A DNA stretch of 64,000 nucleotides from Candidatus Omnitrophota bacterium (GTDB lineage Bacteria > Omnitrophota > Gorgyraeia > Zapsychrales > Zapsychraceae), in NCBI GenBank assembly GCA_029261065.1, contig JAJDCB010000030.1, positions 260,876 to 324,875 of the forward strand, in the 5' to 3' direction. Below are positions 1,732 through 37,047 of the stretch, in pieces. The notes under the pieces were generated by a model, which did no database searches, was not told where the DNA came from, and saw only the letters and a program-made list of their open reading frames with translations. How positions within the stretch are numbered: position 1 is the first letter of the stretch; the number at the start of each line of letters is the position of its first letter. The position numbers and the translations under genes were made by a program.

Positions 1732-1820
1732 ATAAGAATAAATACGTTTGTTGTTGTGTATGATAGTTTTAATGCTTAATATTTAGTGTAATCTTAAAAA
1801 ATAAACATAGGGAGAATAGT

Positions 1821-2474
1821 ATGTTAAAAATTTATGGGGTTAGTTTATCAACACCGTGCAATAAAGTGAGATTTGTAGCAAATGCATTAGATTTAGATTA
1901 TGATTTTGTCGTTGTGAATATGTCGGAAGGAAAACATAAATCGGAAGAGTATCTAGAGTTGCATCCAGCGGGTAAAGTTCCTGTTATTGATGATGAGGGG
2001 TTTGTTTTATTTGAAAGTAATGCGATTATTAAATATTTGAATGAAAAAAATAATGCTGGTTATTATCCAACAGAGCATCGACAACGAGCTATTGTTGATC
2101 AATGGTTAGATTTTTCGAGTCAACATGTGGGGGCGGCAATGAATAAGGTGTTTTTTAATCGGATACTTGCCCCTAAATTTCAAATGGAGGTAGACGCGCA
2201 ATCGTTAAAAGATGGAGAAAAATTTTTACAGAATTTTTTACCGGTGATACATACACAACTAGGAAGACATAAATATCTGGCAGGTGCTGAGTTAACTTTA
2301 GCGGATTTTAATTTATTGGCTGTTCTTGATCCTGCTGAAGTTAGTCAAATTGATTTAACTCAGTTTGATCATATAACGAGATGGCGCGACGAGCTTCGAG
2401 ATAAAGGGTTTTATAAACAGTGTTTTAATAATAGCAATTATACTGAAATGTTAATGGCGATGGCAAAAGAATAG
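1821..2474 (+). CDS. Glutathione S-transferase family protein
   Basis: N-terminal thioredoxin-like GST fold ('KVPVIDDEGFVLFESNAIIKYL'), length 217 aa, C-terminal alpha-helical GST domain. RBS 'agggaga' upstream. Confidence 0.7.
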   Translation: MLKIYGVSLSTPCNKVRFVANALDLDYDFVVVNMSEGKHKSEEYLELHPAGKVPVIDDEGFVLFESNAIIKYLNEKNNAGYYPTEHRQRAIVDQWLDFSSQHVGAAMNKVFFNRILAPKFQMEVDAQSLKDGEKFLQNFLPVIHTQLGRHKYLAGAELTLADFNLLAVLDPAEVSQIDLTQFDHITRWRDELRDKGFYKQCFNNSNYTEMLMAMAKE

Positions 2475-2514
2475 GTTTTTTACTGGATTACGTGTTTTAA
2501 AAAAGCGTGGGACT

Positions 2515-4140
2515 TTATTCAGAAGAAGGAGATTCTGGCATTTCAAAGGGAAGTATAATGCTTACGGTGGTACCTTGGTTTTTCACACTTGTAATACGAA
2601 TTTTTCCTTTATGGCTTTCAATAATGCTTTGCGCAATTGATAGGCCTAAACCAGTATGTTTTTCTTTTGTGCTGTAAAATGGATCAAAAATTTTATTCAA
2701 TTCTTTATCGGGGATGCCACAGCCCGTATCTTTAACATGAATTATAAAGTAAAATGATGTTTGTTCCGTCTCAATCGTTAAATTCCCGCCCCTTGGCATT
2801 GCTTCCAAAGCATTGATGATAATGTTAACTATTGTTTGATTGATTTGATCTGGGTCTATCACTAGATTAACAAATTGTTTATCATCAAATTTTTTATGCA
2901 CCTCAACACCATTTTCTAATATGTTGTTTTTTAAAATTACCAGAGTACTGTTTATTAATAATACAATATTAGTATTTTTTGTCGTTAAAGGGGTTGGGTT
3001 GCTGTATTGATTGAGATGATGAAGCAAACTGTTAATGCGTTGGACCTCGTTTGCGAGAACAGTAGAAAATTTATTTAGAAATTCTTCATCATGTAATTTT
3101 TTAGGAAGATAATGACAATATCCATTGATGGCCGTCAGGGGGTTTTTTATTTCATGAATTATGCTATTGGTTAATGTGGCCAACGTTTTATATCTTTCCG
3201 CTTGAGCGGCTTCTTTCATGAGAAGCTCATTTTGTTCTGCAATTTGAGAAAAACTTCCTTTAAAGAAGTATCGATCAATAAGTGATTGAATAACATTTTT
3301 CAGAGGGATAAAAATTAAGGCAATCGTGGCCATGGCAATCGTTGAACTTACCAAGGATTGGTAACCTAAAATATCTTGGAAAATACGCTCTAGAATGTAA
3401 ATGGTCACAAAATAAAGAATGGTAATGCATGTGATAAGGCTGGAATAAACAAGTCCTTTTTTAAGGATGATATTTATATTAAAAAGTTGGTATCTAAGTA
3501 TAGCGTAAGCAAAGAGAAGGACATAAATGGCTACGAAAATGTTACCAACGGGAGGAATAGGGATGTCAAACCAGAGGGGGAAGTTTGTAAAACCTCCCGA
3601 ATAACTAATTAAGGAGCCAAAAAGAATATATCTGATTTGGTTGCGTTTGATGGGGTGCGTTGTTTTATATTCTTTGGAAAGCAATATAACGCTATAAATG
3701 ATTAAAAGGGCGTAAAGAATAACGTATATTAAGTAGTACTTTCCTGCTGTTGGCCAAAACTCAAACATCATTCTAGGTTTAACATCTTTCACAAAGAGAG
3801 GGGTGAAATTTAATATTAGAAATCCGAGACTTACGACGTATCCAATTAGGATTTTTACACGGTGTTTTTTGTAATTTCCAATTAAGTTAACACAAAAATG
3901 AAAATAGGTGTTTGGGATGAAGATAGCTCCTGTCATTAAGGCGCGGCACCAGAAAAGGGCTGTCGTCTCGGTCTTAGAAAGTTGCCATATAAAATAGCAT
4001 ATTGACCAAATAAAAATAGAGGATGCGAAGTAAAAAAAGGATCGGTTTAAAGAAGATTTTGGGTTTTTGGAAAAAACAAAGATTCCTAAAATTAATGATA
4101 CCAAAGTATTGAGTAAAGCGCTGAAAGGGAAATACCACAT
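2515..4140 (-). CDS. Membrane sensor histidine kinase, paralog of 133..1731 (7TM sensor, HisKA, HATPase_c)
   Basis: Long blocks near-identical to the first HK ('ALFWCRALMTGAIFIPNTYFHF', 'FTNFPLWFDIP', 'ILRYQLF', 'IDRYFFKGS', 'HEIKNPLTAI'). HATPase motifs 'DTGCGI' and 'HTGLGLSIA'. Confidence 0.8.
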   Translation of the reverse strand: MWYFPFSALLNTLVSLILGIFVFSKNPKSSLNRSFFYFASSIFIWSICYFIWQLSKTETTALFWCRALMTGAIFIPNTYFHFCVNLIGNYKKHRVKILIGYVVSLGFLILNFTPLFVKDVKPRMMFEFWPTAGKYYLIYVILYALLIIYSVILLSKEYKTTHPIKRNQIRYILFGSLISYSGGFTNFPLWFDIPIPPVGNIFVAIYVLLFAYAILRYQLFNINIILKKGLVYSSLITCITILYFVTIYILERIFQDILGYQSLVSSTIAMATIALIFIPLKNVIQSLIDRYFFKGSFSQIAEQNELLMKEAAQAERYKTLATLTNSIIHEIKNPLTAINGYCHYLPKKLHDEEFLNKFSTVLANEVQRINSLLHHLNQYSNPTPLTTKNTNIVLLINSTLVILKNNILENGVEVHKKFDDKQFVNLVIDPDQINQTIVNIIINALEAMPRGGNLTIETEQTSFYFIIHVKDTGCGIPDKELNKIFDPFYSTKEKHTGLGLSIAQSIIESHKGKIRITSVKNQGTTVSIILPFEMPESPSSE

Positions 4141-4322
4141 AACTATACTCCAATTTTTAAGTATGTAAGATAGTTTTTATTATAACGAAATGAGATTGCT
4201 TTAGAAAGTAAAAATGCATTTAGAATAAAAAGGCATTATATTAATTTTACTAGAAAAATTAACATTGTTTAGTATAATCATCAATAAATTAAAATGAATT
4301 TTCAAAATGGGGGAGGATTTAT

Positions 4323-5009
4323 ATGCAGAGAATTACGACATTGATGTTGATAATGTTTTTTTTATGTATGAGTGTTACAGGTTATACAGAACAAAAAGGG
4401 GGAGACCATCAGGGGGAGGCCTTGGCCGTTATGAAAGAGGCTCTTCAAAAAAGAATAAGAGTTACTGGAACGTTGGATTTGTTTGATGTTAAAGCGGATC
4501 GAGTGAGAAATTTGAGAAAAATTGAATTTAAAGAAGAGGTCGTTAATGATGGCGACCAATTGGTTGGTATGATGACATGTAAGGATATTGCGACAAATGA
4601 CATGGTTTGGATCGAAGCGGTAGTTCTTGCTAAAAAGGAAGAGGCTTTAAGTTTTAAGGAATTCCGGATCGCAAAAATTGATAAATTTGAAGATAGTAAA
4701 GCGGAGATTTTTGAGAAGAAGAATGTTACTAGGGAGGAGTTGATCACGACTATGACATCTTATGTTGAGCAAAAATCAAAATTTACGAAAAGTTTTGATT
4801 TATACGACGAAAAAGCAAGTAAACTGCGTCACTTAAAGCTAAATTCTTTTTCTGATAAAACGAGAGCCTTTGGGAGTTTGCATATTACTGAAGTTTTATT
4901 TAGTGATGTCGAAACGAATGAAACGCTAAAAATTGATATGACCGTTGAAAATAAAGCTGGTCAATTGAATGTAAAGAAAATAAAAATCAAAAGTGTTTTA
5001 CCTCAATAA
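4323..5009 (+). CDS. Hypothetical secreted protein with an internal tandem duplication
   Basis: Signal peptide 'MQRITTLMLIMFFLCMSVTG'. Two related ~90-aa halves ('LDLFDVKADRVRNLRKIEF...' and 'FDLYDEKASKLRHLKLNSF...'). GGGGAGG RBS 6 nt upstream of the ATG; TATAAT at 4273..4278. Confidence 0.6.
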   Translation: MQRITTLMLIMFFLCMSVTGYTEQKGGDHQGEALAVMKEALQKRIRVTGTLDLFDVKADRVRNLRKIEFKEEVVNDGDQLVGMMTCKDIATNDMVWIEAVVLAKKEEALSFKEFRIAKIDKFEDSKAEIFEKKNVTREELITTMTSYVEQKSKFTKSFDLYDEKASKLRHLKLNSFSDKTRAFGSLHITEVLFSDVETNETLKIDMTVENKAGQLNVKKIKIKSVLPQ

Positions 5010-5198
5010 TTTTGAAACAAGATTAAGGTATGTATAACCTTTTTAAACTTTTAGGGTGTTTCAAAATTTCTTACCTATGTGAGTGCCTAAATTATAAGAT
5101 TTTTCATAAAATATCTGTTTATCAGTTGTAATAAGATTCTGATAATGTAAAATGTGATATGTATATTACTATTAAATAATATTATATATTTTATATTT

Positions 5199-7610
5199 AT
5201 GAAAAATAATCAATTTAAATTATCTTTTCCTTCCTTAATAATTTTCAGTCTCACACTCTGCACAATGTTGTGTTTTCTTGCCGTTTTATGGCAAATGACA
5301 CAGCTTACCTTCAGAATTGAAACAGAATTGCTCAATCATCACTCCTTTTTAGTCATGGAATCTTTTTTACAACAATTTTCAAAGTTGATTTTTACAGTCA
5401 TTTTTTTATTATGGCTAGGTTTAGTAAACATGCTTTTTGTGGTTAAAAGAAGTAGAGAGATGCGTAAAAAACTTTTTAACAAAACGTCTATAGTTAACTT
5501 ATTACATAAAGTGACCAGAGCGGCAAATGAGTCTAAGAGTAGTAACGAGGCGTATAAAGAAGTTTTAGAAATTATTTGTAACTATATGAAATGGCCGATT
5601 GGACACGTTTATGTGCAAAGTAGAAAGAATATGCAAGTCATGGTTTCTGCCGGTATTTGGCGCTCCCCGGAATCTCGGCCTTACCAAAAGTTTCGAGATG
5701 CTTCAAATAAAATAAAATTTAAAGAAGGAGAGGGGGTTATTGGTCTTGCGTTTCAAACGAAAAAGCCGGTTTGGATAAAGGATGTGGATAGGGATCAACA
5801 ATTTAAACGTGCGGCTTTAGCACAAAGCGAAGGATTTAAATCTATCTTAGTTTTTCCTGTCTTGGTAGGAAATCAAGTTGTTTCAATTTTAGAATTTTAT
5901 AGTCGTGAGAGTTGTGAAGAGGGTGATGAGATTGTTAAGTTGATGGGAAATGTAGGAGTCCAGTTGGGGCGGGTTATTGAGCGAGAACGCGCCTCCGAGC
6001 AATTAAAAAATGAGAAAAACATAGCTGTACAGTTAGGAAAGAAAGCCCTGCTTTCTTCGGAAGCAAAGAGCACTTTTTTAGCAGGAATGTCACATGAAAT
6101 TCGTACGCCGATGAATGCGATTTTAGGATTTAGTGACTTATTAACGCGCACAGAATTAGATGAGACTCAATTTAAGTACATTCAAACCATTCAATCGAGT
6201 GGAACGTTATTGATGAGCATTATTAATGATATTTTGGATTTCTCAAAATTTGAATCAGGTAAAATGCAATTAGAATCCATTAATTTTAATATAGAATATT
6301 TAGTTCATGATGTTTTTAAGATGGTGATGGAGAGGATTGCCAATAAACCGATCGATACTTTTGTAGACATAGCAGAGGATGTTCCTCGGTATCTTTTGGG
6401 AGATCCAACAAGATTAAGACAGGTTTTTCTGAATTTGTTGGGAAATGCAATTAAATTTACGAGTGATGGAGAGATAGGCGTTATTATTCGAAGAAACAAT
6501 GCCCTTGTTTCGGAGGATAATATTGGTTTGTTATGTATTGTCAAAGATACGGGGATAGGGGTTTCTGAAGATAAACATCGTTTAATATTTGAGTCTTTTA
6601 GTCAGGCAGATCAGTCAACAACGAGAAACTTTGGCGGTACAGGTTTAGGCCTTACTATATGTAAGTCCATTGTTGAGGCTATGGGTGGCAGGATTCGCAT
6701 TGAGTCGACAGCAAATGTGGGAAGTAAATTTATTTTTGAAATTATTTTGCCAAAGGGTAAGTCATTGACAGAAAGTGAAATTTATCCTCTTTCGTTAGAC
6801 CAAATTAAGAATAAAAAAGTAGCAATCGTTGAAGATAACGACAAAAATCGTGAAATTTTGATTAATTATTGTGAGCAAATTGGCATGGATGTTGTTTTTG
6901 TCGCAAAGAGTGGAGAATCATGTTTACAAAAATTAGATAGTATGGCATCGATTTGTGTTTTCCCTGATGTTTTACTGACGGATATGCTTATGCCTGGAAT
7001 GGATGGCTATGCATTGATAGATAAAATTAGAAAGAATGATAATTGGAAAAAGCTTCGTTTTGTTGCTGTTAGTTCAGATGCTCGTGTGGGAATCACAAAA
7101 GAGGCTCAGGAAAAAGGCTTCCATGGTTTTCTACCTAAACCAATTATCAGAGATGAATTGAAAAATGTGATTGCTGTTGTTTTGGGTGATCAAAGAGAAA
7201 AGAAATCTATTATTACACGTCATAGTGCCGAGGAGATGCATTGCAAAGGGATTAAAGTTTTGGTCGCAGAAGATAGCTTTCCCAATCAGGAATTAATGAA
7301 AGCTTATTTTAAAAATCTTGGTTGTGATGGTGAGTTTGCTGAAAATGGTGCCGAGGCCATTGAGATGATTAAGAAAAATTCTTATGATCTTTGTTTTATG
7401 GATTTACAAATGCCAGTTATGGGCGGGATAGAAGCCACTCTAAAGATTAGAAAAGACATTTCCAAAGAGCTTCCTATTATTGCTTTAACGGCAAATGTTA
7501 TGAAAGAAGCTTACGAGAAATGTTTAAAAGCTGGTATGAATGACTTCTTGCCAAAGCCCGTTGATATGGAATCTCTTAAAAAGAAAATTGTTGGGGTTGT
7601 TAAAAATTAA
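5199..7610 (+). CDS. Hybrid sensor histidine kinase (TM, GAF, HisKA, HATPase_c, two receiver domains)
   Basis: H-box 'MSHEIRTPMNAILGFSDLL'. ATP-lid 'DTGIGV...GGTGLGLTICK'. Two REC domains with the conserved Asp ('LLTDMLMPGMDG', 'CFMDLQMPVMGG'). Track start 5154 is probably too far upstream; the ATG at 5199 ('MKNNQF') precedes the TM segment. Confidence 0.8.
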   Translation: MKNNQFKLSFPSLIIFSLTLCTMLCFLAVLWQMTQLTFRIETELLNHHSFLVMESFLQQFSKLIFTVIFLLWLGLVNMLFVVKRSREMRKKLFNKTSIVNLLHKVTRAANESKSSNEAYKEVLEIICNYMKWPIGHVYVQSRKNMQVMVSAGIWRSPESRPYQKFRDASNKIKFKEGEGVIGLAFQTKKPVWIKDVDRDQQFKRAALAQSEGFKSILVFPVLVGNQVVSILEFYSRESCEEGDEIVKLMGNVGVQLGRVIERERASEQLKNEKNIAVQLGKKALLSSEAKSTFLAGMSHEIRTPMNAILGFSDLLTRTELDETQFKYIQTIQSSGTLLMSIINDILDFSKFESGKMQLESINFNIEYLVHDVFKMVMERIANKPIDTFVDIAEDVPRYLLGDPTRLRQVFLNLLGNAIKFTSDGEIGVIIRRNNALVSEDNIGLLCIVKDTGIGVSEDKHRLIFESFSQADQSTTRNFGGTGLGLTICKSIVEAMGGRIRIESTANVGSKFIFEIILPKGKSLTESEIYPLSLDQIKNKKVAIVEDNDKNREILINYCEQIGMDVVFVAKSGESCLQKLDSMASICVFPDVLLTDMLMPGMDGYALIDKIRKNDNWKKLRFVAVSSDARVGITKEAQEKGFHGFLPKPIIRDELKNVIAVVLGDQREKKSIITRHSAEEMHCKGIKVLVAEDSFPNQELMKAYFKNLGCDGEFAENGAEAIEMIKKNSYDLCFMDLQMPVMGGIEATLKIRKDISKELPIIALTANVMKEAYEKCLKAGMNDFLPKPVDMESLKKKIVGVVKN

Positions 7611-7624
7611 GGATTAAGTACCTC

Positions 7625-9046
7625 GTGAAAAATTATCAATTTGATTTTGAAAATTTAGAAAATACGCTTAAAGTCCTTATTGATGCTGTTGAGCAAACGG
7701 GGGACAACGTGATGGTTACTGATAAAGAGGGTAATGTTAAATATATTAATCCTGCTTTTGAGAGAAATACAGGGTTTTCCCTTGCGGAAGTTATTAACAA
7801 AAATCCAAGGTTTCTTAAGTCTGGAAAACAGGACAAAGAATATTATGAAGAGCTATGGAAAAGTATATTGAGTGGAAAAGTTTTTCGAGCGACGACAATC
7901 AACAAAAAAAAGTCGGGGGAGTTGTATTATTCTGATCAAACGGTATCGCCTGTGACCAATGAAGTTGGTGAGATTACACATTTTGTTTCTGTATGGAAGG
8001 ATATTACTGAGCGTATGGAATATCAAAATGAACTTAATGCATTAAATGATATGCTTTCTTATGAAAAATTGAAACTCGAACAAATTCTTAGCTTTGATGA
8101 AAAGATTAGTGCTCTTGAGAATATAAATGAGATGATTGATTTTATTCTTAAAAAAGTGAGTGTAATCTTAGGCTCTCAACGGTGTTCCTTGTTTTTAGTT
8201 GATGAGAATACTCATGAGATATGTATTAAGGGAGCAATTGGCATATCTGAAGACATTGTTAAGAAAATAAAGGTTAAGCAAGGTGAAGGGGTTATGGGGA
8301 TTGTTATTCAATCGGGAGAATTTTTACTTGTGGAAGATATTGATTTAGATAAGAGGATTGATCGTGAGAATAATTCTAGATATAAATTTAAATCTTTTAT
8401 GTGTGTTCCTATTAAGTTAGAAAATAAACTTATTGGTATTGTTAATGTATCTGAAAAATCTTCCCAAAAAGATGCCATTTATACGTCATTAGATTTAAAA
8501 ATTTTATTGGCTATTGTGCGGGAAGCTGCAGTAGCCATTGAAAATGCCAGAATGTATAAAGAACTAAAGTATTTAACGGTTACGGATCCATTAACGCAGT
8601 TATACAACTTTCGATATTTTACTAAATCCCTAGAGCATGAAATAAATCGCTTTAAAAGGACAGCAAGACCATTAAGCTTGTTGATGATTGATGTAGATCA
8701 TTTTAAAGCGTATAACGATAGTTTTGGGCATTTGGAAGGGGATATCTTGCTTAAGAAGTTAGCCAGTGTCTTTGTTGGTGTGAGCCGCGATATTGATTTT
8801 GTTTGCCGTTATGCGGGTGATGAATTTGCTGTGATATTGTCTGAAACTAATGTTGATGAGGCTAAACAGGTTGCACAACGTATGTTAGAAAAGGTGCGAA
8901 AGTTAAAATTAAAGCAAAAAGTTACTTTAAGTATTGGAATAGCTCAATGTACAGAGAGCATGGATCGTAGAGATTTTATTTCAAAAGCAGATCGTGCTTT
9001 ATTTGAGGCTAAACACGAGGGACGTGATCGCGTTTGTACCTTGTAA
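7625..9046 (+). CDS. PAS-GAF-GGDEF diguanylate cyclase-type protein (AGDEF active-site variant, RxxD I-site)
   Basis: GTG start 14 nt after the hybrid HK. PAS ('NTGFSLAEVINKNPRFL'), GAF, and a GGDEF domain whose signature reads 'RYAGDEF' with the I-site 'RDID' five residues upstream. Confidence 0.75.
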   Translation: MKNYQFDFENLENTLKVLIDAVEQTGDNVMVTDKEGNVKYINPAFERNTGFSLAEVINKNPRFLKSGKQDKEYYEELWKSILSGKVFRATTINKKKSGELYYSDQTVSPVTNEVGEITHFVSVWKDITERMEYQNELNALNDMLSYEKLKLEQILSFDEKISALENINEMIDFILKKVSVILGSQRCSLFLVDENTHEICIKGAIGISEDIVKKIKVKQGEGVMGIVIQSGEFLLVEDIDLDKRIDRENNSRYKFKSFMCVPIKLENKLIGIVNVSEKSSQKDAIYTSLDLKILLAIVREAAVAIENARMYKELKYLTVTDPLTQLYNFRYFTKSLEHEINRFKRTARPLSLLMIDVDHFKAYNDSFGHLEGDILLKKLASVFVGVSRDIDFVCRYAGDEFAVILSETNVDEAKQVAQRMLEKVRKLKLKQKVTLSIGIAQCTESMDRRDFISKADRALFEAKHEGRDRVCTL

Positions 9047-15274: not shown

Positions 15275-16564
15275 ATGAAATTTTATACAGATCTTCATCT
15301 GCATTCTTTTTATTCCCGCGCCACAAGTAAAAATTTAAACCTCGAGCATTTGCATCTTTGGGCACAAATTAAAGGGATCGATGTTGTTGGGACAGCTGAT
15401 TTTGTTCATCCTGGTTGGATGAAAGAGTTGGAGCAGAAGCTTGAGCCAGCTGAAGAAGGTTTTTTTAAGTTAAAACCAAAATATGTTAAGACAACCCAAG
15501 ATCAAGTGCCTAAAGCATGTCGTGCCGATGTGCGTTTTACCTTAACCGTTGAGATATCAAATATTTACAAAAGATTAGATCGTGTGCGCAAAGTACACAA
15601 TCTTCTTTATGCCCCCCATTTTAAAGCAGCCAAAAAAATTCAATCTCGTCTTGATGCTATAGGTAATATTAAATCAGATGGACGTCCTATTTTGGGATTA
15701 GATTCCAGAGATTTGTTAGAGATTACATTAGAATCGGATCCATTAAGTTATCTTGTTCCTGCACACATTTGGACGCCTTGGTTTTCTGCGTTGGGTTCCA
15801 AGGGAGGATTTGATCGCATCGAAGATTGTTTTGGCGATCTAACCAAACATGTCTTTGCCGTTGAAACAGGATTATCTTCTGATCCGTTAATGAATTGGAG
15901 ATTAAAACAATTAGACCCTTATGTTCTTGTTTCAAATTCGGATGCGCATTCACCCGCTAAATTGGCGCGTGAGGCGACGATATTTGATACGGAATTCTCT
16001 TATAGGGGTATTTATAACGCATTATCTGATCCAAAGAATAAAGGATTAAAGGGGACTCTTGAGTTCTTTCCTGAAGAAGGGAAGTATCATTACGATGGTC
16101 ATCGTGATTGCAAAACAAGATTGCATCCGCAAGAAACAAAAAATCATCAAGGATTGTGCCCTGTTTGTGGCAAGCCCGTTACGGTTGGTGTTATGGCACG
16201 AGTTGAGGAGTTAGCGGATAGACCTGAGGGTCAAAAATCGAAACGATGGCGACCGTATTTTAATTTAATTCCATTGCCCGAGGTTATTGCATCAGCCCGT
16301 GGCGTTGTTGGCTCAAATGGAAAAGCTGTTCAAGCTGTATTTTTTCAATTGTTATCCGAATTAGGGAATGAGTTATATATTTTGCAAGATGCGCCAATCG
16401 CTGATATAGAACGTGTGGCAGGTGATATGGTGGCCCAAGGTGTTAAGCGTATGAGAGAGGGGAAAGTTGATATAAAAGCAGGTTTCGATGGGGAGTATGG
16501 AAAAATCAATTTGTTCACAGAACAAGAGCGTGTTAAGAAAGCTGGACAACTCGCGTTATATTAA
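15275..16564 (+). CDS. PHP-domain protein, endonuclease Q-like (TIGR00375-type)
   Basis: N-terminal 'YTDLHLHSFYSRATS' PHP metal-binding motif, 'NSDAHSP' later PHP motif, putative Zn knuckle 'CPVCGKP'. Length ~430 aa, similar to EndoQ. Confidence 0.55.
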   Translation: MKFYTDLHLHSFYSRATSKNLNLEHLHLWAQIKGIDVVGTADFVHPGWMKELEQKLEPAEEGFFKLKPKYVKTTQDQVPKACRADVRFTLTVEISNIYKRLDRVRKVHNLLYAPHFKAAKKIQSRLDAIGNIKSDGRPILGLDSRDLLEITLESDPLSYLVPAHIWTPWFSALGSKGGFDRIEDCFGDLTKHVFAVETGLSSDPLMNWRLKQLDPYVLVSNSDAHSPAKLAREATIFDTEFSYRGIYNALSDPKNKGLKGTLEFFPEEGKYHYDGHRDCKTRLHPQETKNHQGLCPVCGKPVTVGVMARVEELADRPEGQKSKRWRPYFNLIPLPEVIASARGVVGSNGKAVQAVFFQLLSELGNELYILQDAPIADIERVAGDMVAQGVKRMREGKVDIKAGFDGEYGKINLFTEQERVKKAGQLALY

Positions 16565-28375: not shown

Positions 28376-30511
28376 ATGAAGTTTAATATTATGTTTAATT
28401 TTTTATTTGTTCCTAAAAGATCTTTTCCTTATTGGTTTCTTTCCGTTATATGTCTTTGGGCCTATATAACACTATCTACAAGTAGTGTATCAGCCAATCC
28501 CATTATGGACGTTTCCTATCGCGAGATGTGGGATGTCAAACCAACTCCGATAGAAAATCAGATTAAGGCGAAACCTACTCTTAATAAAGAGAGTGAGCCT
28601 TTGAGAACTGTTTCGATGAAACGTTCTTTTAAAGATGATAATAAGCAGAAACAATATAATCAAGAAGATGTGAGTTATGAGATAGCTCCCGTTTATGTCC
28701 GTCCAAGCCTAGAATATCAAGCCTCGCCTTCTCGAAGCTGGTCTGATGAAGTTGTTGTTACAGCTAAGCGTATCCCTACTTTTTCCAGCCACAGTGCAGA
28801 AAATATAAAAGTTATTACAGAAAAAGACATAGAAAAGTTGCCTGCCAGAAATCTTGGAGAGGTCTTAAAGTATGTTCCAGGGGTGGATGTTCTCTCTACG
28901 TCGGAATTTGGCCAAGCCTCATCTGTTTCGATTAATGGATCGAAGTCAAGGCAAGTGTTGATAATGGTCGATGGTATTCCTTTTAATACACAGCTTTCTG
29001 GTCAAGCGAATCCAACGCGTATTCCCATTGGGCACATTAAGCAAATTGAAGTCATTAAGGGTGCCTCCTCAAGTGCTTGGGGGTCAAGTATTGGAGGTGT
29101 TATTAATGTTATTACCAAAGATGTTGGCGACTCTCATATTCCCGAGGGACAATTTACGACTAGTTACGGTGAGTTTGCTAGTACAACCAACAGTCTAGAT
29201 TTATCAGGAAAGGTTGGTGAGTTAGGCTATTATTTGTCAGGCAGTTTTCTTAAAACAGATGGGCCTTTCTCAGAGACAGATGTCGAAGAAACTAAATCAT
29301 TTCTAAAGCTTGCTCACCCTTTAGCTGATGCTGCGAAATTAACGGCATCATTTGGATATAGTGGGGCAAATGTGCGTTATGGCGTTACGCGATCAAATCG
29401 TATTAATTCAACGCCCTACATCTCTAGATATGGTCAGCTTGTCTTGGATGTTGATAAACCAACATTTGATTTTCAAGCGGCCTATAAGTATAACGATCAA
29501 GATATTACGACAGATATTTTTAATGCCTCAACAGGAGCCTTAGTCTCGGCAACAGTCAGTCACAATTTTCTTCAGGGTGTGGGTTTAAATGGAAGTATGG
29601 AAATCAATGAAACAGATACTTTTGTTTTAGGAGGAGATTTTGACTGGCAAACGCTTAAGTCTAATAATTTTTTAACAGAAAGTAAAAGTATAGGAACACA
29701 GGCCGCTTACAGTAATTACACGAGAAGTACAGATCGTTGGGATGTTATTCCTGGAATCAGATATGATCGAAACGAACATTTTGGCGAGCAATTTAGTCCC
29801 AGCTTTGGTGTTGTTTATCATTTTTTAAATTCTTCCGAAACATTACTCCGTGCAAAAGCCTCCCAAGCCTTCAATGCGCCACCTTTACTATGGATATTTA
29901 ACGATGATCCCACATTATTCGTTGGTCCTAGTCCTGATTTAGACGCTGAAAGTGCAAATGTTTATGAGTTAGGATTAGAGTCTGACATTTCTTCAAGGGT
30001 GCATATGAATTTAAGTTTATATCGCATGGATGTAAAGGATGCGATTGGATTGGTTTTTCAAGGAGGAGCTTTTGTTCAACGTAACTTTAGAAAATTTAGA
30101 AGACAAGGGGCCGAATTGCAACTGCAATATGATATTACTAAGGATTTATCGCTTGTGACAAGTGGAGCTTTTAACGATGTTGAAAATAGAGAGACAGGCC
30201 AGATGGTGCGGGATCAAGGTGTGGCTCGGCAAAGTTATTTGTTGGGTATGAATTATAAAAATAATAAAGGATATGGCGTTTATTTAAATGGTTATTATAA
30301 ACGGTGGAGTTCTTCTCCTTCTTTACAAGCAAACGATCGTAAATTTATATTAGATGCTAAGTTGACAAAAGAATGGGCTAATGTATTTAGACATATGGAT
30401 ATGGAGGTGTTTTTTAATATTCATAATGTTACCAATAGTAAATACTGGTCTAGCATCAATTTTCCTCTTCCCGAAAGGCACCTCGAAGGAGGGCTAACAA
30501 TTAAATTTTAA
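28376..30511 (+). CDS. TonB-dependent outer-membrane receptor
   Basis: Plug domain ('VVVTAKRIPTFSSHSAENIKVITEKDIEKLPARNLGEVLKYVPGV'). Long beta-barrel ending in terminal aromatic 'TIKF'. Confidence 0.8.
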   Translation: MKFNIMFNFLFVPKRSFPYWFLSVICLWAYITLSTSSVSANPIMDVSYREMWDVKPTPIENQIKAKPTLNKESEPLRTVSMKRSFKDDNKQKQYNQEDVSYEIAPVYVRPSLEYQASPSRSWSDEVVVTAKRIPTFSSHSAENIKVITEKDIEKLPARNLGEVLKYVPGVDVLSTSEFGQASSVSINGSKSRQVLIMVDGIPFNTQLSGQANPTRIPIGHIKQIEVIKGASSSAWGSSIGGVINVITKDVGDSHIPEGQFTTSYGEFASTTNSLDLSGKVGELGYYLSGSFLKTDGPFSETDVEETKSFLKLAHPLADAAKLTASFGYSGANVRYGVTRSNRINSTPYISRYGQLVLDVDKPTFDFQAAYKYNDQDITTDIFNASTGALVSATVSHNFLQGVGLNGSMEINETDTFVLGGDFDWQTLKSNNFLTESKSIGTQAAYSNYTRSTDRWDVIPGIRYDRNEHFGEQFSPSFGVVYHFLNSSETLLRAKASQAFNAPPLLWIFNDDPTLFVGPSPDLDAESANVYELGLESDISSRVHMNLSLYRMDVKDAIGLVFQGGAFVQRNFRKFRRQGAELQLQYDITKDLSLVTSGAFNDVENRETGQMVRDQGVARQSYLLGMNYKNNKGYGVYLNGYYKRWSSSPSLQANDRKFILDAKLTKEWANVFRHMDMEVFFNIHNVTNSKYWSSINFPLPERHLEGGLTIKF

Positions 30512-30627
30512 GAGTTAAAGTTTTTTTGTCTTTAAGTAGAAAAAAGTCATGAAATAGTACCCTTATCCTATTTTCATTTTCAAAATTTAAACTATAATTA
30601 TGGTTAATTATTTATGTGTGTAAATTA

Positions 30628-32274
30628 ATGAATAACATCGTAATAAAGGTTTTCTTTTTGGTAATGGCAATATCTTATTCCATACCTACTGCAGTATCAG
30701 CAAATCAATCCACAATCCCTACAAATCGTTTATTAAAATTCAGAGATCAAACTAATCCAAATTTACTTTCATCAGAGCCCCAGTACGGTGGAGAATTAAT
30801 TTGGGGGACAAGCAATCCTCCGTCGATCATTAATCCTATTTTAACACATATGAGTGTTTCCACGAGCCTTGTTCAGCTTATATTCAATGGCCTTGTTAAA
30901 AAAAATCCGCAAGGTGAAATAATTCCTTCGCTAGCAGAATCATGGGATATCTCTGATGATCATCTTACATATACATTTTATTTGAGAAAAAACGTCAGAT
31001 TTCATGACGGTGTCGAACTTACAGCGGAGGATGTTAAATTTACTTATGAGCTGATTGTTAATGATAAAGTAGACTCTATCTATAGATCTTCGCTAATTTC
31101 TGTTAGCCATTTTGATGTGTTAGATAAATATACAATTCGAATTGTTTTGAAAAAGGATGTGCAAAATTTTATTCATCAGCTAGTTCGTTTTATTGTACCT
31201 AAACATTTATTAGAAAATGAAGATGTTCAGAATACAAAATTTAATTATCAACCTATTGGAAGCGGACCATTTAAGTTTCAGAATTGGGATAAAATTACAA
31301 ATGAGATTGAGCTAGTCGCGAATAAAGATTATTTTGAAGGACGACCTTATTTGGATAGCATATTAATCAAGCAATACCCAAATAAGAATGCATTATGGTC
31401 GGCGTTGATGAGAAATGAGGTTGATCTTGTTCTGTTTTTAAGCAAGAAAGACTACAACATTTTAAAGGATGATCCTTCTTATAATGTTTACAGAATACCC
31501 TTGGAATTTAATTGTGCAATTATTTATAACACGCAAGATGCAATACTAAATGATTTTGAAGTTAGAAAGGCGATTGCTCATAGTATTGACAGAAAAAAAT
31601 TGATTTCAGATGTTTCGATTGAAGGTTTAGAAAGCGTGGGACCCTTACATCCCGATGCTTTAAAGGGTGATCATTTGTTAAATCTATTTGAATATAATCC
31701 TCATAAAGCAAAAGTTATTTTGATGCATAGAGGGTGGAGGGATGATAACAAAGATGGAATTCTTGAGAAAGAAGGAAGAGATTTAGAAATTAAACTTTTG
31801 GTTTATGAACAAAATGAAGATTTTAAAAAGATTGTACAAGTTTTACATCAACGATTTGCTGATGTTGGAATAAAGTTAAGTGTTCTTTTGTATAACGACA
31901 ATTTGCAATTAACTGACGAGTTTTTGCAAAAACATAAACCTCAAGCATGGATAAGATTTCTTTCTTCAAGGTTGTCTAATAAGTATGTCAATCTTGGATA
32001 TTGGTACTCTCAATCCAGTGAATTTGGACGATTGTGGAAATATGAAAATAAAAAATTTGATGAAATATATGAAAGTGGATTAATTGAAAAAGATGTGGAT
32101 GAGAGGTACAAGTTATACGAAGAGATGCACGATATCATTTACAAAGATCAACCTGCAAGTTTTTTATTTGTTCCTGTAAGTTATCATGCTGTTTCTGAAA
32201 AATTTAGAAATGTAGACGCATTGTTTAAACATAATATGGCTGTTTATACTTTATCTGAATGGTATTTGGAGTAA
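30628..32274 (+). CDS. Periplasmic solute-binding protein, family 5 (peptide/nickel/opine type; MbnE/OppA/DppA-like)
   Basis: Signal peptide 'MNNIVIKVFFLVMAISYSIPTAVSA'. SBP_bac_5 core ('LVKKNPQGEIIPSLAESWDISDDHLTYTFYLRKNVRFHDG'). No permease or ATPase genes adjacent. Confidence 0.75.
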   Translation: MNNIVIKVFFLVMAISYSIPTAVSANQSTIPTNRLLKFRDQTNPNLLSSEPQYGGELIWGTSNPPSIINPILTHMSVSTSLVQLIFNGLVKKNPQGEIIPSLAESWDISDDHLTYTFYLRKNVRFHDGVELTAEDVKFTYELIVNDKVDSIYRSSLISVSHFDVLDKYTIRIVLKKDVQNFIHQLVRFIVPKHLLENEDVQNTKFNYQPIGSGPFKFQNWDKITNEIELVANKDYFEGRPYLDSILIKQYPNKNALWSALMRNEVDLVLFLSKKDYNILKDDPSYNVYRIPLEFNCAIIYNTQDAILNDFEVRKAIAHSIDRKKLISDVSIEGLESVGPLHPDALKGDHLLNLFEYNPHKAKVILMHRGWRDDNKDGILEKEGRDLEIKLLVYEQNEDFKKIVQVLHQRFADVGIKLSVLLYNDNLQLTDEFLQKHKPQAWIRFLSSRLSNKYVNLGYWYSQSSEFGRLWKYENKKFDEIYESGLIEKDVDERYKLYEEMHDIIYKDQPASFLFVPVSYHAVSEKFRNVDALFKHNMAVYTLSEWYLE

Positions 32275-32305
32275 AGTGCTTAACTAAAAGAAAGGAGGAG
32301 AAAAA

Positions 32306-32410
32306 ATGGAAATTGTAAAATTGGGTTCAAATGATTTAAATCAACAAGATTCATTGAATTGTTGTTGGCCACCCGGGGCAGAGGTGTTAGAAACCCCATC
32401 GGATGAATAA
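32306..32410 (+). CDS. Candidate RiPP precursor peptide, 34 aa (MEIVKLGSNDLNQQDSLNCCWPPGAEVLETPSDE); absent from the ORF track
   Basis: Near-perfect RBS 'aaggaggag' 6 nt upstream of ATG 32306; in-frame stop upstream at 32285. Immediately precedes a radical SAM/SPASM enzyme. Cys-Cys-Trp-Pro-Pro-Gly core, acidic C-terminus. Confidence 0.55.
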   Translation: MEIVKLGSNDLNQQDSLNCCWPPGAEVLETPSDE

Positions 32411-32422
32411 CTTTTCATAAAT

Positions 32423-32485
32423 TTTTAGCGCACTATTTATCAATAACTGCGGCATTTAGTAAGGTTGAAAAATAGTGCGCTAAAA
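32423..32485 (+). promoter_or_regulatory. 16-bp perfect inverted repeat (TTTTAGCGCACTATTT / AAATAGTGCGCTAAAA) between the peptide gene and the radical SAM gene
   Basis: Arms at 32423..32438 and 32470..32485 with a 31-nt spacer. Either an RNA hairpin (attenuator or processing site setting the precursor:enzyme ratio) or a palindromic operator. Confidence 0.5.
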
Positions 32486-32514
32486 GTTTACGGAATAAAT
32501 AAAGGATTTTTCAT

Positions 32515-33882
32515 ATGAAGTTTTCTTGCCATACTATCATTGTCGATCATTACCCAGAAGTAAATCAGCACTTACTTTATAATACACGCACACAGTCGAT
32601 GATCAAAATTGATCAAGAACTTCGGCGTACTATTGAAGAGTATCCTAAAAATATTAAGATGATTTCAAAAAAGACTTGGGAGGATTTGAAGGCCTTACAC
32701 AATATGGGTATATTAGTTGAAAATGATGACGAAGATATGCTTAGACTTAAAAGTCATATGATGCAACTTAAGAAAAGTGTAAACGCAAAAGTTTTGCCGA
32801 TAACTATTTTAACGACATATGCCTGTAACTTTAAATGTAGCTATTGCTTTCAAGAAAGTTCACGTACCTTTGATAAGATGACAACAGAAACAAGTGACCA
32901 TGTGATTAGCTGGTTAAAATATAAAGTGAAGCAGTTTGGCTATCAAAAACTGCTCATTAATTTTTATGGGGGGGAGCCGCTTGTTAATCAGCGTACTTTA
33001 AAAGAAATTGTCAGTCAGATGAAACCTTGGTGTGAAGGAGAAGGTGTTGAGTTTAAGTTTATGTTACAAACTAATGGTTATTTGATGACTTCCCAATTGG
33101 TTGATGAATATATCGAGATGGGTTTAGATCAGGTTCGTATTTCTGTTGATGGTGTTGGGGAAGATCACGATCGGCATCGACCGTTAAGAAATGGGAAGGG
33201 GACGTTTGATCGCGTTATGAAAAATATTGTTGATAATGTTGATAAATTGAAAATTGGGATTTCTATTAGTTATGATAAAGGACAAGTTGATCATATTGAA
33301 CGATTTTTTGATTACTGCAATGATTTAGGAATAACAAAAAAATTGGGCCGATTTATCTTTTCTCCTATACATGCAACTTTGGGGCCAAAAGAGAAGCCTG
33401 AGATGATACAAAATTCAAGCTGCATGTGTAATTACGAAGATAAAAGTTTAGAGGATGCGAATCGTAAAATTAATGCTCTTATGCGTGCCAATGGGCTTGT
33501 AAGTAAAAGTGGTATGTCAACATCTACATGTCCTGTCACACGTGATAATTCTGGGATGACGATAGACCAGCATGGACATTTGTATAAATGTAACTCCATG
33601 TTAGGGCATCCGGAGCTCTCTACAGGGCATGTGAAAGATCTTATCTATAATCAAAAACATCGTGAATTTGTTAATTTGGATGTTTACAAACAATGCCCTG
33701 TTGATTGCACCTATATGCCAATGTGTAGTGGCGGGTGTCGATTATCCTCGTTTTTAAAAAACAAAAACTTTACTACACCCACCTGCCACAAGCCTTATCT
33801 TAATAAGATGGCGCCGGATTTAATCAAAAAAGATTATGAGTCCTTGATGGCAAAGGCAAAGCCTTCATTAGCAAAGAGTTGA
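32515..33882 (+). CDS. Radical SAM / SPASM-domain peptide-modifying enzyme with N-terminal RRE-like extension
   Basis: CxxxCxxC 'CNFKCSYC' begins at residue 104, after a ~95-aa N-terminal domain. C-terminal Cys-rich SPASM region ('CPVTRD', 'CNSMLGH', 'CPVDCTYMPMCSGGC'). Confidence 0.75.
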   Translation: MKFSCHTIIVDHYPEVNQHLLYNTRTQSMIKIDQELRRTIEEYPKNIKMISKKTWEDLKALHNMGILVENDDEDMLRLKSHMMQLKKSVNAKVLPITILTTYACNFKCSYCFQESSRTFDKMTTETSDHVISWLKYKVKQFGYQKLLINFYGGEPLVNQRTLKEIVSQMKPWCEGEGVEFKFMLQTNGYLMTSQLVDEYIEMGLDQVRISVDGVGEDHDRHRPLRNGKGTFDRVMKNIVDNVDKLKIGISISYDKGQVDHIERFFDYCNDLGITKKLGRFIFSPIHATLGPKEKPEMIQNSSCMCNYEDKSLEDANRKINALMRANGLVSKSGMSTSTCPVTRDNSGMTIDQHGHLYKCNSMLGHPELSTGHVKDLIYNQKHREFVNLDVYKQCPVDCTYMPMCSGGCRLSSFLKNKNFTTPTCHKPYLNKMAPDLIKKDYESLMAKAKPSLAKS

Positions 33883-34035: not shown

Positions 34036-35793
34036 ATGAGATTTAACTTCAAGCGTTTACGTTTTTTATTTCCAAATCGTATTTGGCATCAGATATTTTT
34101 TGTCCTCATTTTTATGGTGGTCATTCCGCTTGTCATTTTGGGGACGTTACTTATTACAACGAGTAAAAGAACGATTAAAACCTCAGTTTTAAGGGATTAT
34201 AAGCAAATTGCCATTCATGCGACGGGAGAAGTTGAGCAAAGTATTGAAGGGGCAAAGCATGCCTTAGAAGTAGCGGCCTCGATTTTAGGAATCCTACAGT
34301 CCGATATTTGGCGTCAAGAAACCACATTAGTTGAGTTAGCCTTACAATATCCCGCCTATCGACGTGTATCCAGCGTTGATTTAAATGGAGAAGAGCTGGC
34401 AACATCCGAGTTGGGGACTATTTTTCGTGACTGGTCCAATGAAAAAGTCTTTAAAGAGGCGCGTGAGGGAAATGCTTATATTTCTAAAGTCAGGATAGGT
34501 GCAGATCATATCCCATTATTAATTATTGCGACGCCCATTATATCGTTGGGTAAGACTAGGGGGGTGCTTATAGGAGAGCTAAATATTAGGGGAATTTGGG
34601 ATATTGTCGATAGCATCAAATTTGGCGAGACGGGGCGTGCTTATTTAATTGATCAAGAGGGACGGGTGATTGCTCATCCGGATAAAAAGATTGTGTTTCA
34701 AAATAATGCCGTTATCTCTCCTAAAGTCCCTAGCGCTGTCTTGCAGGGAAAGTCAGGGGCCATTGAACAAAAGGATGAGAATTCAAGAATGTGGTTGGTG
34801 TCATACGCTCCAGTAGAAGGGCTTAATTGGGGCTTGATCATCTCTCAATTGGAATCTGAAGCCATGAGCTTTTCAAAGGTTATGCAACATCAATCATGGT
34901 TACTCATTGGTCTAAGTTTACTGGCGACTGTATTGATAAGTTTTATCTTGGCCAGATCTATTCGTCGACCTATTCATCATCTTATAGATGGAACAAATCG
35001 TTTAGCTAAAGGAGACTATGGGTTTTCGTTTCGTATCGGACAAAGAAATGAGATCGGTAAATTACTGTTTTCGTTTAATCGAATGGCCAGAAAGCTTGAA
35101 AAGGCACAACGAATGGAGCGGTTATCTTTTGTTGGTCGTGCCGCAACAGCTATTGCCCATGAATTGAAAAATTCTCTTGTTCTTGTAAAAACGTTTGTTC
35201 AACTTTTACCAGAGAGACATCAAGAAGAAAAGTTTATTAAAGATTTTTCAAAAATAATTCCTCGAGAATTAGAAACGTGGAATGAGATGTTAAGGGGTAT
35301 TATGGAATATTCTAGAAATAAGGATTTTTCAAAAGAATTAATTGACGTTAATCAAATGATTGAAAATGTTTTTTCTTTGGCCGAGTTGCGAGTTAAACAA
35401 AAAGACATTGAGTTAAATTTAAATATGAATTCAGATATTCCTCGCGTTTTTGGAAATGAAGAGAAGCTAAAGCAAGTTGTGCTTAATTTGGTTACTAACG
35501 CTATAGATGCTACATCAACAGGGGGTTCGATTACAATGGCGACAGAATTGGTGCCTATGAAGGATGCTAGTGGATACGAGGTAGAGTTGAAAGTTATTGA
35601 TACAGGAGAAGGTATGAGCCAAGAGCAAGTTTCAAGGATTTTCGAACCATTTTTTTCTACCAAAAAAAATGGATTAGGTCTGGGGTTGGCTATAAGCCAG
35701 GATATTGTTAAGCATCATGGGGGCGTTATTCAAGTTTATTTAAACAAATTTGAAACGTCTTTTGTTGTTAGATTGCCAGTATCAACAGCTTAG
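34036..35793 (+). CDS. Sensor histidine kinase with periplasmic Cache-like domain, HAMP, HisKA, HATPase_c
   Basis: TM1 at residues ~20-42 and TM2 at ~285-305 around a ~240-aa periplasmic domain. H-box 'AHELKNSLVLV'. 'DTGEGM...GLGLGLAISQDIV'. Confidence 0.75.
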   Translation: MRFNFKRLRFLFPNRIWHQIFFVLIFMVVIPLVILGTLLITTSKRTIKTSVLRDYKQIAIHATGEVEQSIEGAKHALEVAASILGILQSDIWRQETTLVELALQYPAYRRVSSVDLNGEELATSELGTIFRDWSNEKVFKEAREGNAYISKVRIGADHIPLLIIATPIISLGKTRGVLIGELNIRGIWDIVDSIKFGETGRAYLIDQEGRVIAHPDKKIVFQNNAVISPKVPSAVLQGKSGAIEQKDENSRMWLVSYAPVEGLNWGLIISQLESEAMSFSKVMQHQSWLLIGLSLLATVLISFILARSIRRPIHHLIDGTNRLAKGDYGFSFRIGQRNEIGKLLFSFNRMARKLEKAQRMERLSFVGRAATAIAHELKNSLVLVKTFVQLLPERHQEEKFIKDFSKIIPRELETWNEMLRGIMEYSRNKDFSKELIDVNQMIENVFSLAELRVKQKDIELNLNMNSDIPRVFGNEEKLKQVVLNLVTNAIDATSTGGSITMATELVPMKDASGYEVELKVIDTGEGMSQEQVSRIFEPFFSTKKNGLGLGLAISQDIVKHHGGVIQVYLNKFETSFVVRLPVSTA

Positions 35794-35924: not shown

Positions 35925-36656
35925 ATGCTATCTGAAACAATTGTGGTTATTGATGATGATGAGCGTGTAATTCAAAGTTTAGAACTAGCTCTTAGCGAAT
36001 ATGAAGTGGTTGGTTTTGAAAAGCCTAAAGAGGCAATGGTTTATTTACGTAAGCCGAATGAAGTAAGTCTTGTTTTATTGGATGTTATGATGCCTAAAGT
36101 TAATGGTATTAACATTCTTCAAGAAATCAAAAGTTTAAAAACAGATTTATCGGTCATAATGATTACGGCTTACGGCTCAAAAGATGTTGTCATGCAAGCG
36201 TTAAGAAATAAAGCAGATGATTTTATTGAAAAGCCTTTCGATATCAAAGAAATTAGACAAAAAATTAAAGAACATTTGAGTAAAAAATTAAAGTTTTCAA
36301 CTTATGGCGTCACGCAAAATCTTCATGTGGAGCGTATCAGACGTTTTATCGATCGAAATTACAATAATGTAAATTTAGATGAAATAGCCAGCCAAATGTG
36401 TTTAAGTCCCAAATATATTAGTCGGCTTTTTAATAGAGTTAATGACATCGATTTTCGTGATTATAAAGTGCAAGTAAAAATTAAACGTGCCAAAGATCTT
36501 CTTGTAAACACCTCTTTAAGTGTCCACGATATATCTAACGATTTGGGCTATCAAAATCCGGAATCATTTATGCGTATTTTTAAACAAAAAGTTAAACTTA
36601 CTCCTATGCAGTATCGAAAAAAGAGTTTAGTCTCTCAAAGTATAGATCATGAATAA
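35925..36656 (+). CDS. Response regulator with receiver and AraC-type HTH output
   Basis: REC ('VVIDDDERV', 'LVLLDVMMPKVNG') plus C-terminal AraC HTH ('YISRLFNRVNDIDFRDYKVQVKIKRAKDLL...PESFMRIFK'). Confidence 0.75.
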   Translation: MLSETIVVIDDDERVIQSLELALSEYEVVGFEKPKEAMVYLRKPNEVSLVLLDVMMPKVNGINILQEIKSLKTDLSVIMITAYGSKDVVMQALRNKADDFIEKPFDIKEIRQKIKEHLSKKLKFSTYGVTQNLHVERIRRFIDRNYNNVNLDEIASQMCLSPKYISRLFNRVNDIDFRDYKVQVKIKRAKDLLVNTSLSVHDISNDLGYQNPESFMRIFKQKVKLTPMQYRKKSLVSQSIDHE

Positions 36657-37047
36657 TGTTAAGATATTAATTATCGATGGACACCCTGTTTATTATCAGA
36701 AAACAGTTGGGTTTCTTAAAGGTCTAACGTTAAAAGACATTACAACGGCTAGTTCAGGCCAAGAGGGACTTAAAAAGGTTGATATGTTAAGGCCGGATCT
36801 CATCATGATGAGTGCTATGTTGCCAGATTTTGATGGCGTAGATATTTGTAGAGAAATTAGGGCTATTAAAGACTACACACCAAAAATTATTGTTCAAATA
36901 GGTGTCTTTTATGAAGAAAAGGATATAGACGATCTTTATCAAAGTGGGGCGAACAAAGTTGTTCTTCGCAAAGAAAAAGACTTCTTATCTTTAGAGAAGG
37001 CCATTGATGAGTTGTTGTTCTCAAAGTCAGGATCCCGCCAAAGTTAG
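36649..37047 (+). CDS. Atypical single-domain receiver (pseudo-receiver) lacking the phospho-acceptor Asp
   Basis: Receiver fold, but the canonical 'DLxxLD' site reads 'DLIMMSAM' (Asp replaced by Ser). Overlaps the upstream AraC-RR gene by 8 nt. Confidence 0.55.
   Translation: MNNVKILIIDGHPVYYQKTVGFLKGLTLKDITTASSGQEGLKKVDMLRPDLIMMSAMLPDFDGVDICREIRAIKDYTPKIIVQIGVFYEEKDIDDLYQSGANKVVLRKEKDFLSLEKAIDELLFSKSGSRQS

Follow-up and report, generated by a model that had tools for sequence, protein, structure and literature searches.

The 64,000-nucleotide stretch of contig JAJDCB010000030.1 analysed here (hereafter the window) comes from a Candidatus Omnitrophota bacterium and contains, at 32306-32410 on the plus strand, a 34-codon open reading frame (ORF) that is a genuine conserved coding gene under purifying selection. 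This gene very probably encodes the precursor of a ribosomally synthesised and post-translationally modified peptide (RiPP) that is modified by a radical S-adenosylmethionine (rSAM) enzyme. Within the geopeptide family, the peptide falls in a diverged branch centred on Omnitrophota. The initial annotation, made from the window alone, had correctly described the ORF and its translation, an in-frame stop codon upstream (TAA, 32285-32287) and its position directly 5′ of an rSAM/SPASM gene, within the 240-nt gap between the stop of a substrate-binding protein (SBP) gene at 32274 and the rSAM start at 32515. The two genes have the same orientation and are 104 nt apart. The strong Shine-Dalgarno sequence that had been claimed is present, with a spacer of 5 nt rather than the 6 nt given, which is a trivial difference. 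The gene, its signals and the enzyme that follows it are listed below.

32292-32300, plus strand: Shine-Dalgarno sequence AAGGAGGAG, strong, with a 5-nt spacer to the ATG at 32306
32306-32410, plus strand: probable precursor peptide gene, ATG 32306, TAA 32408-32410, 34 codons, translation MEIVKLGSNDLNQQDSLNCCWPPGAEVLETPSDE
32306-32359, plus strand: leader MEIVKLGSNDLNQQDSLN, the N-terminal part of the precursor
32360-32365, plus strand: invariant Cys-Cys within the core CCWPPGA, which is followed by the acidic tail EVLETPSDE
32413-32495, plus strand: intra-operon RNA hairpin with a perfect 21-bp core (32418-32438 paired with 32470-32490), a putative attenuator or transcript stabiliser
32515-33882, plus strand: radical SAM/SPASM peptide maturase with an N-terminal domain resembling a RiPP recognition element (RRE), best NCBIfam model TIGR04280

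DNA around homologues of the rSAM protein was collected for locus comparison. In all 24 loci that were inspected in detail, a small same-strand ORF is located 69-258 nt 5′ of the enzyme gene, and in all 24 its start is preceded by a GAAAGGAGGTG-like Shine-Dalgarno sequence. Codon-level conservation, suggested as a check in the initial annotation, showed the pattern of a coding sequence: across an ungapped 25-codon block of the 14 closest orthologues, mean pN was 0.25 and mean pS 0.725, giving a ratio of 0.34 in frame, compared with 1.27 and 1.29 for the shifted frames of the same nucleotides. Pairwise differences among these orthologues averaged 0.29 at the first codon position, 0.17 at the second and 0.575 at the third, which is thus the most variable. 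A hidden Markov model (HMM) of the orthologues, built without the window sequence, matched ORF 32306-32410 alone among 2,480 six-frame window segments (E 2.8e-15), and a superfamily HMM, also built without it, matched the same ORF at E 2.8e-7. Precursor HMM searches of 53 loci gave exactly one match per locus. When 1.84 billion cluster representatives were searched exhaustively with a profile, 42 proteins were returned at E up to 1e-3, approximately 39 of which are peptides of 30-66 aa that are matched end to end and carry CC[WFY]P[PA]G[TS]; a 40-aa orthologue used as the query against a 5.8-billion-protein index returned only itself. The description of the ORF as unannotated is correct only in part: the identical 34-aa ORF has been called as a gene in a Logan assembly that is public and derives from the same organism (L161), and the NCBI, JGI and ENA protein sets contain orthologues, although without names.

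Two further candidates were rejected. A possible second precursor copy in the window (3733-3810, plus strand; VVLSCCWPKLKHH..., VVLSCCWPKL..., HMM E 0.0075) lacks a start codon and falls within the kinase gene at 2515-4140, to which it is antisense; it is attributed to chance. A regular-expression screen for selenocysteine (Cys-Sec) variants of the precursor, with TGA read through, gave scattered noise and no candidate at the precursor position.

Peptides of the window clade share the consensus MEII-x-x-G-[TS]-[ED]-D-[VIL]-x-x-[ML]-x-x-L-[SGN]-C-C-[WFY]-P-[PA]-G-[TS] and end in an acidic tail that is often PEPE-like. Anchoring 52 superfamily peptides on the Cys pair showed that an N-terminal hydrophobic run is followed by a Gly approximately 12 residues ahead of the pair, that the Cys-Cys itself is invariant and placed 5-14 residues from the C-terminus, and that all residues after it vary. 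The Cys-Cys pair is the sole invariant core element across the superfamily, and the hydrophobic leader motif is also kept, across phyla. Both the vicinal cysteines and the Trp that follows them had been proposed as crosslink sites; the proposal for Trp is weakened, since within the clade its place can be taken by Phe, Tyr or Met, and since most distant branches lack it. Peptides such as MAIEVLDEGVESTEMVSTCCTATSARS occupy the precursor position in loci from Geobacter, Trichlorobacter, Desulfuromonadales, other Desulfobacterota and Nitrospirota. Against TIGR04229, the curated geopeptide model (cutoff 30 bits), Geobacter-type peptides score 27-35 bits and the Omnitrophota orthologue in locus L001 scores 20.6 bits, under the cutoff.

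Geopeptides, defined by TIGR04229 and its maturase model TIGR04280 (cutoff 400 bits) from Geobacter and relatives, resemble the window peptide in having a short precursor (27-40 aa) with a hydrophobic-x-x-G leader motif and the Cys-Cys pair at the same distance from the C-terminus, in having one precursor per locus directly 5′ of a homologous rSAM/SPASM enzyme, and in having a TonB-dependent receptor, an orphan SBP and a kinase nearby. They differ in their core, which has small or polar residues and a basic tail where the window clade has CC[WFY]PPG[TS] and an acidic tail; in their SBP, which belongs to PF04392, while the window has a family 5 SBP and an AraC-type regulator; and in their hosts, those of the window clade being Omnitrophota and Planctomycetota. 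The window thus carries the traits of a geopeptide-like superfamily (leader motif, Cys-Cys near the C-terminus, and linkage to TonB receptor, orphan SBP and kinase), while its peptide and enzyme fall outside TIGR04229 and TIGR04280 as curated. Judged by their sequences, the two are diverged relatives of the TIGR04229/TIGR04280 pair: a subfamily rather than a wholly new family, because the leader motif, the invariant Cys-Cys and the TonB-receptor synteny are common to the geopeptide family, and a currently unrecognised one, because the clade scores below both curated cutoffs. The earlier suggestion that the peptide may represent a new precursor family is therefore not supported in that form and has to be narrowed. 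A search of the available literature found nothing naming geopeptide, TIGR04229 or TIGR04280 or describing the chemistry of either branch, and no account, for Geobacter or Omnitrophota, of an rSAM-modified RiPP accompanied by a TonB receptor; two metagenome surveys of biosynthetic gene clusters touch on Omnitrophota RiPPs only generically.

The Nitrospirota-type CC precursors (L053, L055, L124, L129; for example L124 1279-1518) are longer, at 60-90 aa, because the CC core is preceded by long extensions of strongly basic Lys/Ala/Thr repeats (for example ...KKKATKKKVTKKKTAKKKATKKK...ICCAGALMRI) that are similar to histone H1 tails.

The enzyme encoded next to the precursor is most likely the one that modifies it. 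The locus has the hallmarks of an rSAM/SPASM RiPP system, with an adjacent, co-oriented precursor and an enzyme that combines a CX3CX2C motif, a Cys-rich SPASM region and an RRE-type domain. Among 33 homologues, CX3CX2C (C104/C108/C111) and C339, C359, C394, C398, C404 and C408 of the C-terminal SPASM region are invariant, and C303 and C424 are nearly so. The best curated model for the enzyme is TIGR04280 (254.9 bits, E 1.4e-75, full length), followed by CefB, TIGR04463, PapB, Clo7bot, CcpM and the SCIFF maturase; it shares approximately 26% identity with the Geobacter enzyme, and the Geobacter protein in L061 is a true TIGR04280 member (622 bits). The AlphaFold (AF2) model of the window enzyme has a pLDDT of 92.3, with residues 7-87 (pLDDT >90) folded as beta-beta-beta-alpha-alpha-alpha, a topology indicating that they may form a PqqD-like RRE domain that binds the leader. 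The coding status of the gene, the bipartite arrangement of leader and CC[WFY]PPG core, and the rSAM/SPASM neighbour with this RRE-like domain all favour the RiPP precursor assignment made in the initial annotation.

The closest solved protein in both sequence and fold is CteB, the SCIFF thioether synthase (whole-length alignment, TM 0.62-0.67), with TigE, anSME, SuiB and ChlB behind it. In the proposed maturation the leader (MEIIxxG...) would dock on the RRE and the enzyme would act on the two adjacent cysteines. The likeliest chemistry, although we would put it at somewhat below an even chance, is thioether formation that crosslinks the cysteines to residues nearby, because links of this type are made by the characterised enzymes to which it is most closely related, namely CteB and, going by model names, PapB, the SCIFF maturase and QhpD. 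The SCIFF and ranthipeptide systems (CteA/CteB; PapA/PapB) share with the window an enzyme built of RRE, rSAM and SPASM and a substrate in which cysteines are the key residues, but the window precursor has two adjacent Cys in place of six spaced ones or CX3D repeats. The window enzyme scores 113 bits against TIGR03974 (cutoff 425) and 146.5 against PapB (cutoff 340), and the peptide matches no NCBIfam model; moreover, we know of no ranthipeptide cluster that carries a TonB receptor or an SBP. The single adjacent Cys pair, together with a score of 61 bits against the RumMC model (cutoff 720), likewise places the system outside the sactipeptides, and the initial annotation was right to separate the peptide from the precursors of SCIFF, sactipeptides and streptide.

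More distant rSAM homologues (approximately 24-32% identity) are found in Acidobacteriota/Vicinamibacterales loci (L017-L031, L084-L103), where a CC-type precursor is missing upstream and, across the group, a TonB receptor is seldom nearby. For these two reasons they probably serve a different substrate.

In the window, the precursor and enzyme genes lie within a longer run of plus-strand genes:

28376-30511, plus strand: TonB-dependent outer-membrane receptor (Plug and beta-barrel; NCBIfam and Pfam), first gene of the cassette
30616-32274, plus strand: orphan periplasmic SBP of family 5 (Opp/Nik-like) with a signal peptide (PF00496, E 1.5e-75)
34036-35793, plus strand: membrane sensor histidine kinase with periplasmic dCache_1 and HAMP domains, conserved 3′ of the rSAM gene in the clade
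35925-36656, plus strand: response regulator with AraC-type helix-turn-helix output, conserved in the clade
36649-37047, plus strand: receiver-only response regulator overlapping the end of the AraC-type regulator gene, also found after that gene in L162-L168

The order in the window (receptor, SBP, precursor, hairpin, rSAM, kinase, regulators) recurs in the orthologous loci, where the family 5 SBP is kept immediately 5′ of the precursor. The nearest solved structures to this SBP are AppA and binders of the NikZ/NikA type, and its gene is accompanied by neither a cognate permease nor an ATPase in the window cassette. Approximately half of the orthologous cassettes have an MsbA/HlyB-like ABC half-transporter, with no peptidase domain, between the rSAM and kinase genes (for example L164 10393-12123 and L168 10362-12092; also L001, L002, L005, L006, L007, L081, L082 and L004). 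In Geobacter/Nitrospirota-type loci the receptor is kept, the SBP is a PF04392 (TrpX-like) protein encoded directly beside the kinase gene, and the regulator is of the sigma54 type in several.

The 57 CC-peptide loci include 42 with a receptor, 39 with an SBP and 39 with a kinase, most of the misses being on short contigs; the SBPs of the 39 loci comprise 17 of family 5 and 22 of PF04392, and the two never occur together. When only loci of at least 9 kb were counted, the SBP and the kinase were each present in 28 of 33 CC-peptide loci and the TonB receptor in 32 of 33, the lone locus without a receptor being cut by a contig end. In contrast, only 5 of 57 control loci, which are likewise at least 9 kb long and have an rSAM homologue without a CC peptide, have a TonB receptor (Fisher p 5.5e-18). 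This linkage spans at least seven phylum-level lineages, namely Omnitrophota, Planctomycetota, spirochaetes, Ignavibacteriales, Auribacterota, Desulfobacterota (including Geobacter) and Nitrospirota. Since the roles persist while the protein families that fill them are swapped (the SBP, and AraC-type versus sigma54-type regulators), there is strong evidence that CC peptide, enzyme, receptor, SBP and kinase/regulator form a functional unit. The near-obligate coupling, across phyla, of the peptide and its enzyme with TonB receptor, orphan SBP and two-component system is a result that goes beyond the initial annotation.

Two orthologous loci depart from the common arrangement. SBP_bac_5 is split into two adjacent ORFs in L168 (7111-7974 and 7978-8745), indicating a frameshift, a pseudogene or an assembly error, and in L162 (961-8809) the TonB receptor and SBP genes are separated by an insertion of four signalling genes, which encode a CHASE3 kinase, two receivers and, between these, a receiver-PAS-kinase-GGDEF protein.

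The composition of the cassette suggests a route for its product. The mature peptide would leave the cell through the ABC half-transporter of those cassettes that have one (the window does not), the TonB-dependent receptor would return it across the outer membrane, the orphan SBP would bind it in the periplasm, and the dCache histidine kinase would report the bound peptide to the AraC-type response regulator. TonB receptors are importers, not exporters, and the SBP lacks a permease and an ATPase but has a kinase as its neighbour; on these grounds we consider such a loop of export, recapture and sensing to have slightly better than even prospects of being correct.

Several results weigh against the interpretation developed so far. 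The window peptide matches no NCBIfam model, TIGR04229 included, even at E up to 10, and the score of the enzyme is well under the 400 bits required by TIGR04280. The superfamily has no conserved acceptor residue, so that the thioether assignment comes from enzyme homology alone, and no characterised precedent for chemistry on two adjacent Cys was found in the literature. The window cassette contains neither an exporter nor a leader peptidase. Finally, a k-mer screen upstream of the TonB receptor genes, the starts of which are uncertain, returned AT-rich low-complexity k-mers alone and no conserved regulator motif.

In this loop the peptide could be a signal between cells, or it could carry metal through its thiol or thioether groups, two versions that we rate about equally and that are each, taken singly, doubtful. 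As a signal, it would be a quorum-sensing-like autoinducer of diderm anaerobes, in which the variable core provides specificity, the TonB receptor admits a peptide of approximately 1.5-3 kDa, and the SBP, together with the dCache kinase, senses the peptide and activates the AraC-type regulator. This version is consistent with the orphan SBP near a kinase in both branches, the genes being directly adjacent in the Geobacter type, with a core that is highly variable around a fixed CC, and with the signalling-rich surroundings of the cassettes. Ranthipeptides have been tied to quorum sensing (Chen et al. 2020, cited in PMC13635244). On the other side, the k-mer screen described above did not find an autoregulatory DNA motif, and the window cassette has no means of exporting the peptide or removing its leader. 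TonB-gated peptide signalling also has, to our knowledge, no established precedent.

As a metallophore, an equally uncertain assignment, the CC peptide, modified fully or in part, would bind a soft metal (Cu, Ni, Co or Zn) outside the cell, the TonB receptor would import the complex and pass it to the Nik/Opp-like SBP, and the two-component system would tune production to metal supply. Such a scheme would parallel that of methanobactin, with a radical SAM enzyme taking the part of MbnBC. Methanobactin operons have a RiPP precursor in which Cys is essential (with doublets in the core of some MbnA groups), a same-strand upstream TonB transporter, a binding protein in some operons, and dedicated signalling (PMC3621798). 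The window shares with them the layout of TonB transporter and periplasmic binding protein beside a Cys-containing RiPP precursor, which is an analogy and not homology: the maturase MbnB (DUF692/MNIO) with MbnC is unrelated to the rSAM/SPASM enzyme of the window, neither is found among the annotated cassette genes, regulation is by sigma/anti-sigma factors rather than a two-component system, and the window cassette has no MATE exporter, so that the window system is not a methanobactin. Relatives of the SBP include the metal or metallophore binders NikA, NikZ and CntA, CC and CU motifs have been argued to mark soft-metal sites, and the CC pair is the sole invariant in an otherwise variable core. 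The hosts are apparently anaerobes, and sulfide limits metal availability in anaerobic settings. Uptake, however, would lack an inner-membrane permease or ATPase within the cassette, no metal-responsive regulator was seen among the cassette genes, and the TrpX-like PF04392 SBP of the distant branch has no known metal binding. The relatives of the enzyme use up the thiol in forming thioethers, and with both cysteines converted in this way the capacity of free thiols to bind soft metals would be forfeited, which speaks against a simple metallophore.

It is improbable that the modified peptide is instead kept inside the cell, as a cofactor precursor (PQQ/mycofactocin-like) or a crosslinked small subunit (QhpC-like), with the receptor, SBP and kinase as unrelated neighbours. 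The precursor has no signal peptide, the window cassette has no exporter or peptidase, and enzymes of the QhpD, PqqE and MftC type are relatives in the same SPASM superfamily, all of which would fit an intracellular product; but the tie to the TonB receptor (32/33 versus 5/57 loci) is near-obligate, the roles of the neighbours persist through changes of protein family, approximately half of the orthologous cassettes have the ABC exporter, and the cassette has no conserved dehydrogenase or other enzyme that uses a cofactor.

The hairpin between the precursor and enzyme genes has a predicted dG of -35.5 kcal/mol (z -7.5), and a comparably strong hairpin of unrelated sequence is found at the same position in 23 of the 24 loci, followed by T-runs in several. 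Rfam gave no match at gathering score, returning only sub-threshold miRNA and Phe_leader noise. Hairpins acting as attenuators or stabilisers set a high ratio of precursor to enzyme transcript in other RiPP operons, and such a role is suggested here because structure without sequence is kept at a fixed operon position; the hairpin probably raises the upstream transcript (receptor, SBP and precursor) over that of the enzyme and regulator genes. A strong hairpin 3′ of tandem Cys codons, in some loci with T-runs, could also be taken to mean that the ORF is a functionless leader peptide whose translation couples attenuation of the rSAM gene to the supply of Cys-tRNA, and there is a weak Phe_leader match (E 0.07) that would agree with this. 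That match is, however, on the opposite strand and far under the gathering score. Purifying selection acts on the whole peptide and not just on the Cys codons, with the leader motif kept across phyla, and the hairpin is self-contained, beginning just past the stop codon with no pairing to the ORF and no evident antiterminator; for these reasons the attenuator-leader explanation is rejected as very improbable, and the predicted leader-binding RRE-like domain of the enzyme also speaks against it. A chance ORF without a product, which might be entertained since such short ORFs are common in AT-rich intergenic DNA and a second ORF of 39 codons overlaps this one on the opposite strand, is refuted by the conservation of frame, Shine-Dalgarno sequence and peptide sequence across several phyla, and its probability is negligible.

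The window as a whole (1-64000) is uniform in composition, with a GC content of 0.34-0.40, positive GC skew throughout and nearly all long ORFs on the plus strand. The cassette was considered as a compositional island and rejected as such, the GC content being uniform at approximately 0.35 over the cassette and its flanks. No tRNA genes and no Rfam families were found in the 64 kb. The region 79-9046 is dense in signalling genes, encoding paralogous HisKA_7TM kinases (79-1731, plus strand; 2515-4140, minus strand), a hybrid GAF-kinase-receiver protein (5154-7610) and a PAS-GAF-GGDEF protein (7625-9046). A 429-aa ORF at 15275-16564 (plus strand) matched none of the Pfam families at E values up to 1e-6.

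For Omnitrophota, which are uncultivated and of whose chemistry next to nothing is known, the precursor and enzyme described here represent a concrete two-gene pair. As TIGR04229 and TIGR04280 miss the clade, pipelines that rely on these models leave its precursors unnamed. The lone invariant pair of adjacent cysteines points to a modification so far undescribed for radical SAM peptide maturases. The cross-phylum coupling of peptide, receptor, SBP and two-component system suggests a general route by which diderm anaerobes may recapture and sense a peptide of their own making, which would bear on either metal acquisition or cell-to-cell signalling. In its fullest form, which is put forward only tentatively, CC-peptide cassettes would be widespread in anaerobic diderms and would combine an unprecedented adjacent-Cys chemistry with a secreted ligand that re-enters through a TonB receptor and is read by an SBP and a kinase; if this is true, the product would be either a TonB-gated RiPP peptide signal or a metallophore made by a radical SAM enzyme, in each case the first of its kind.

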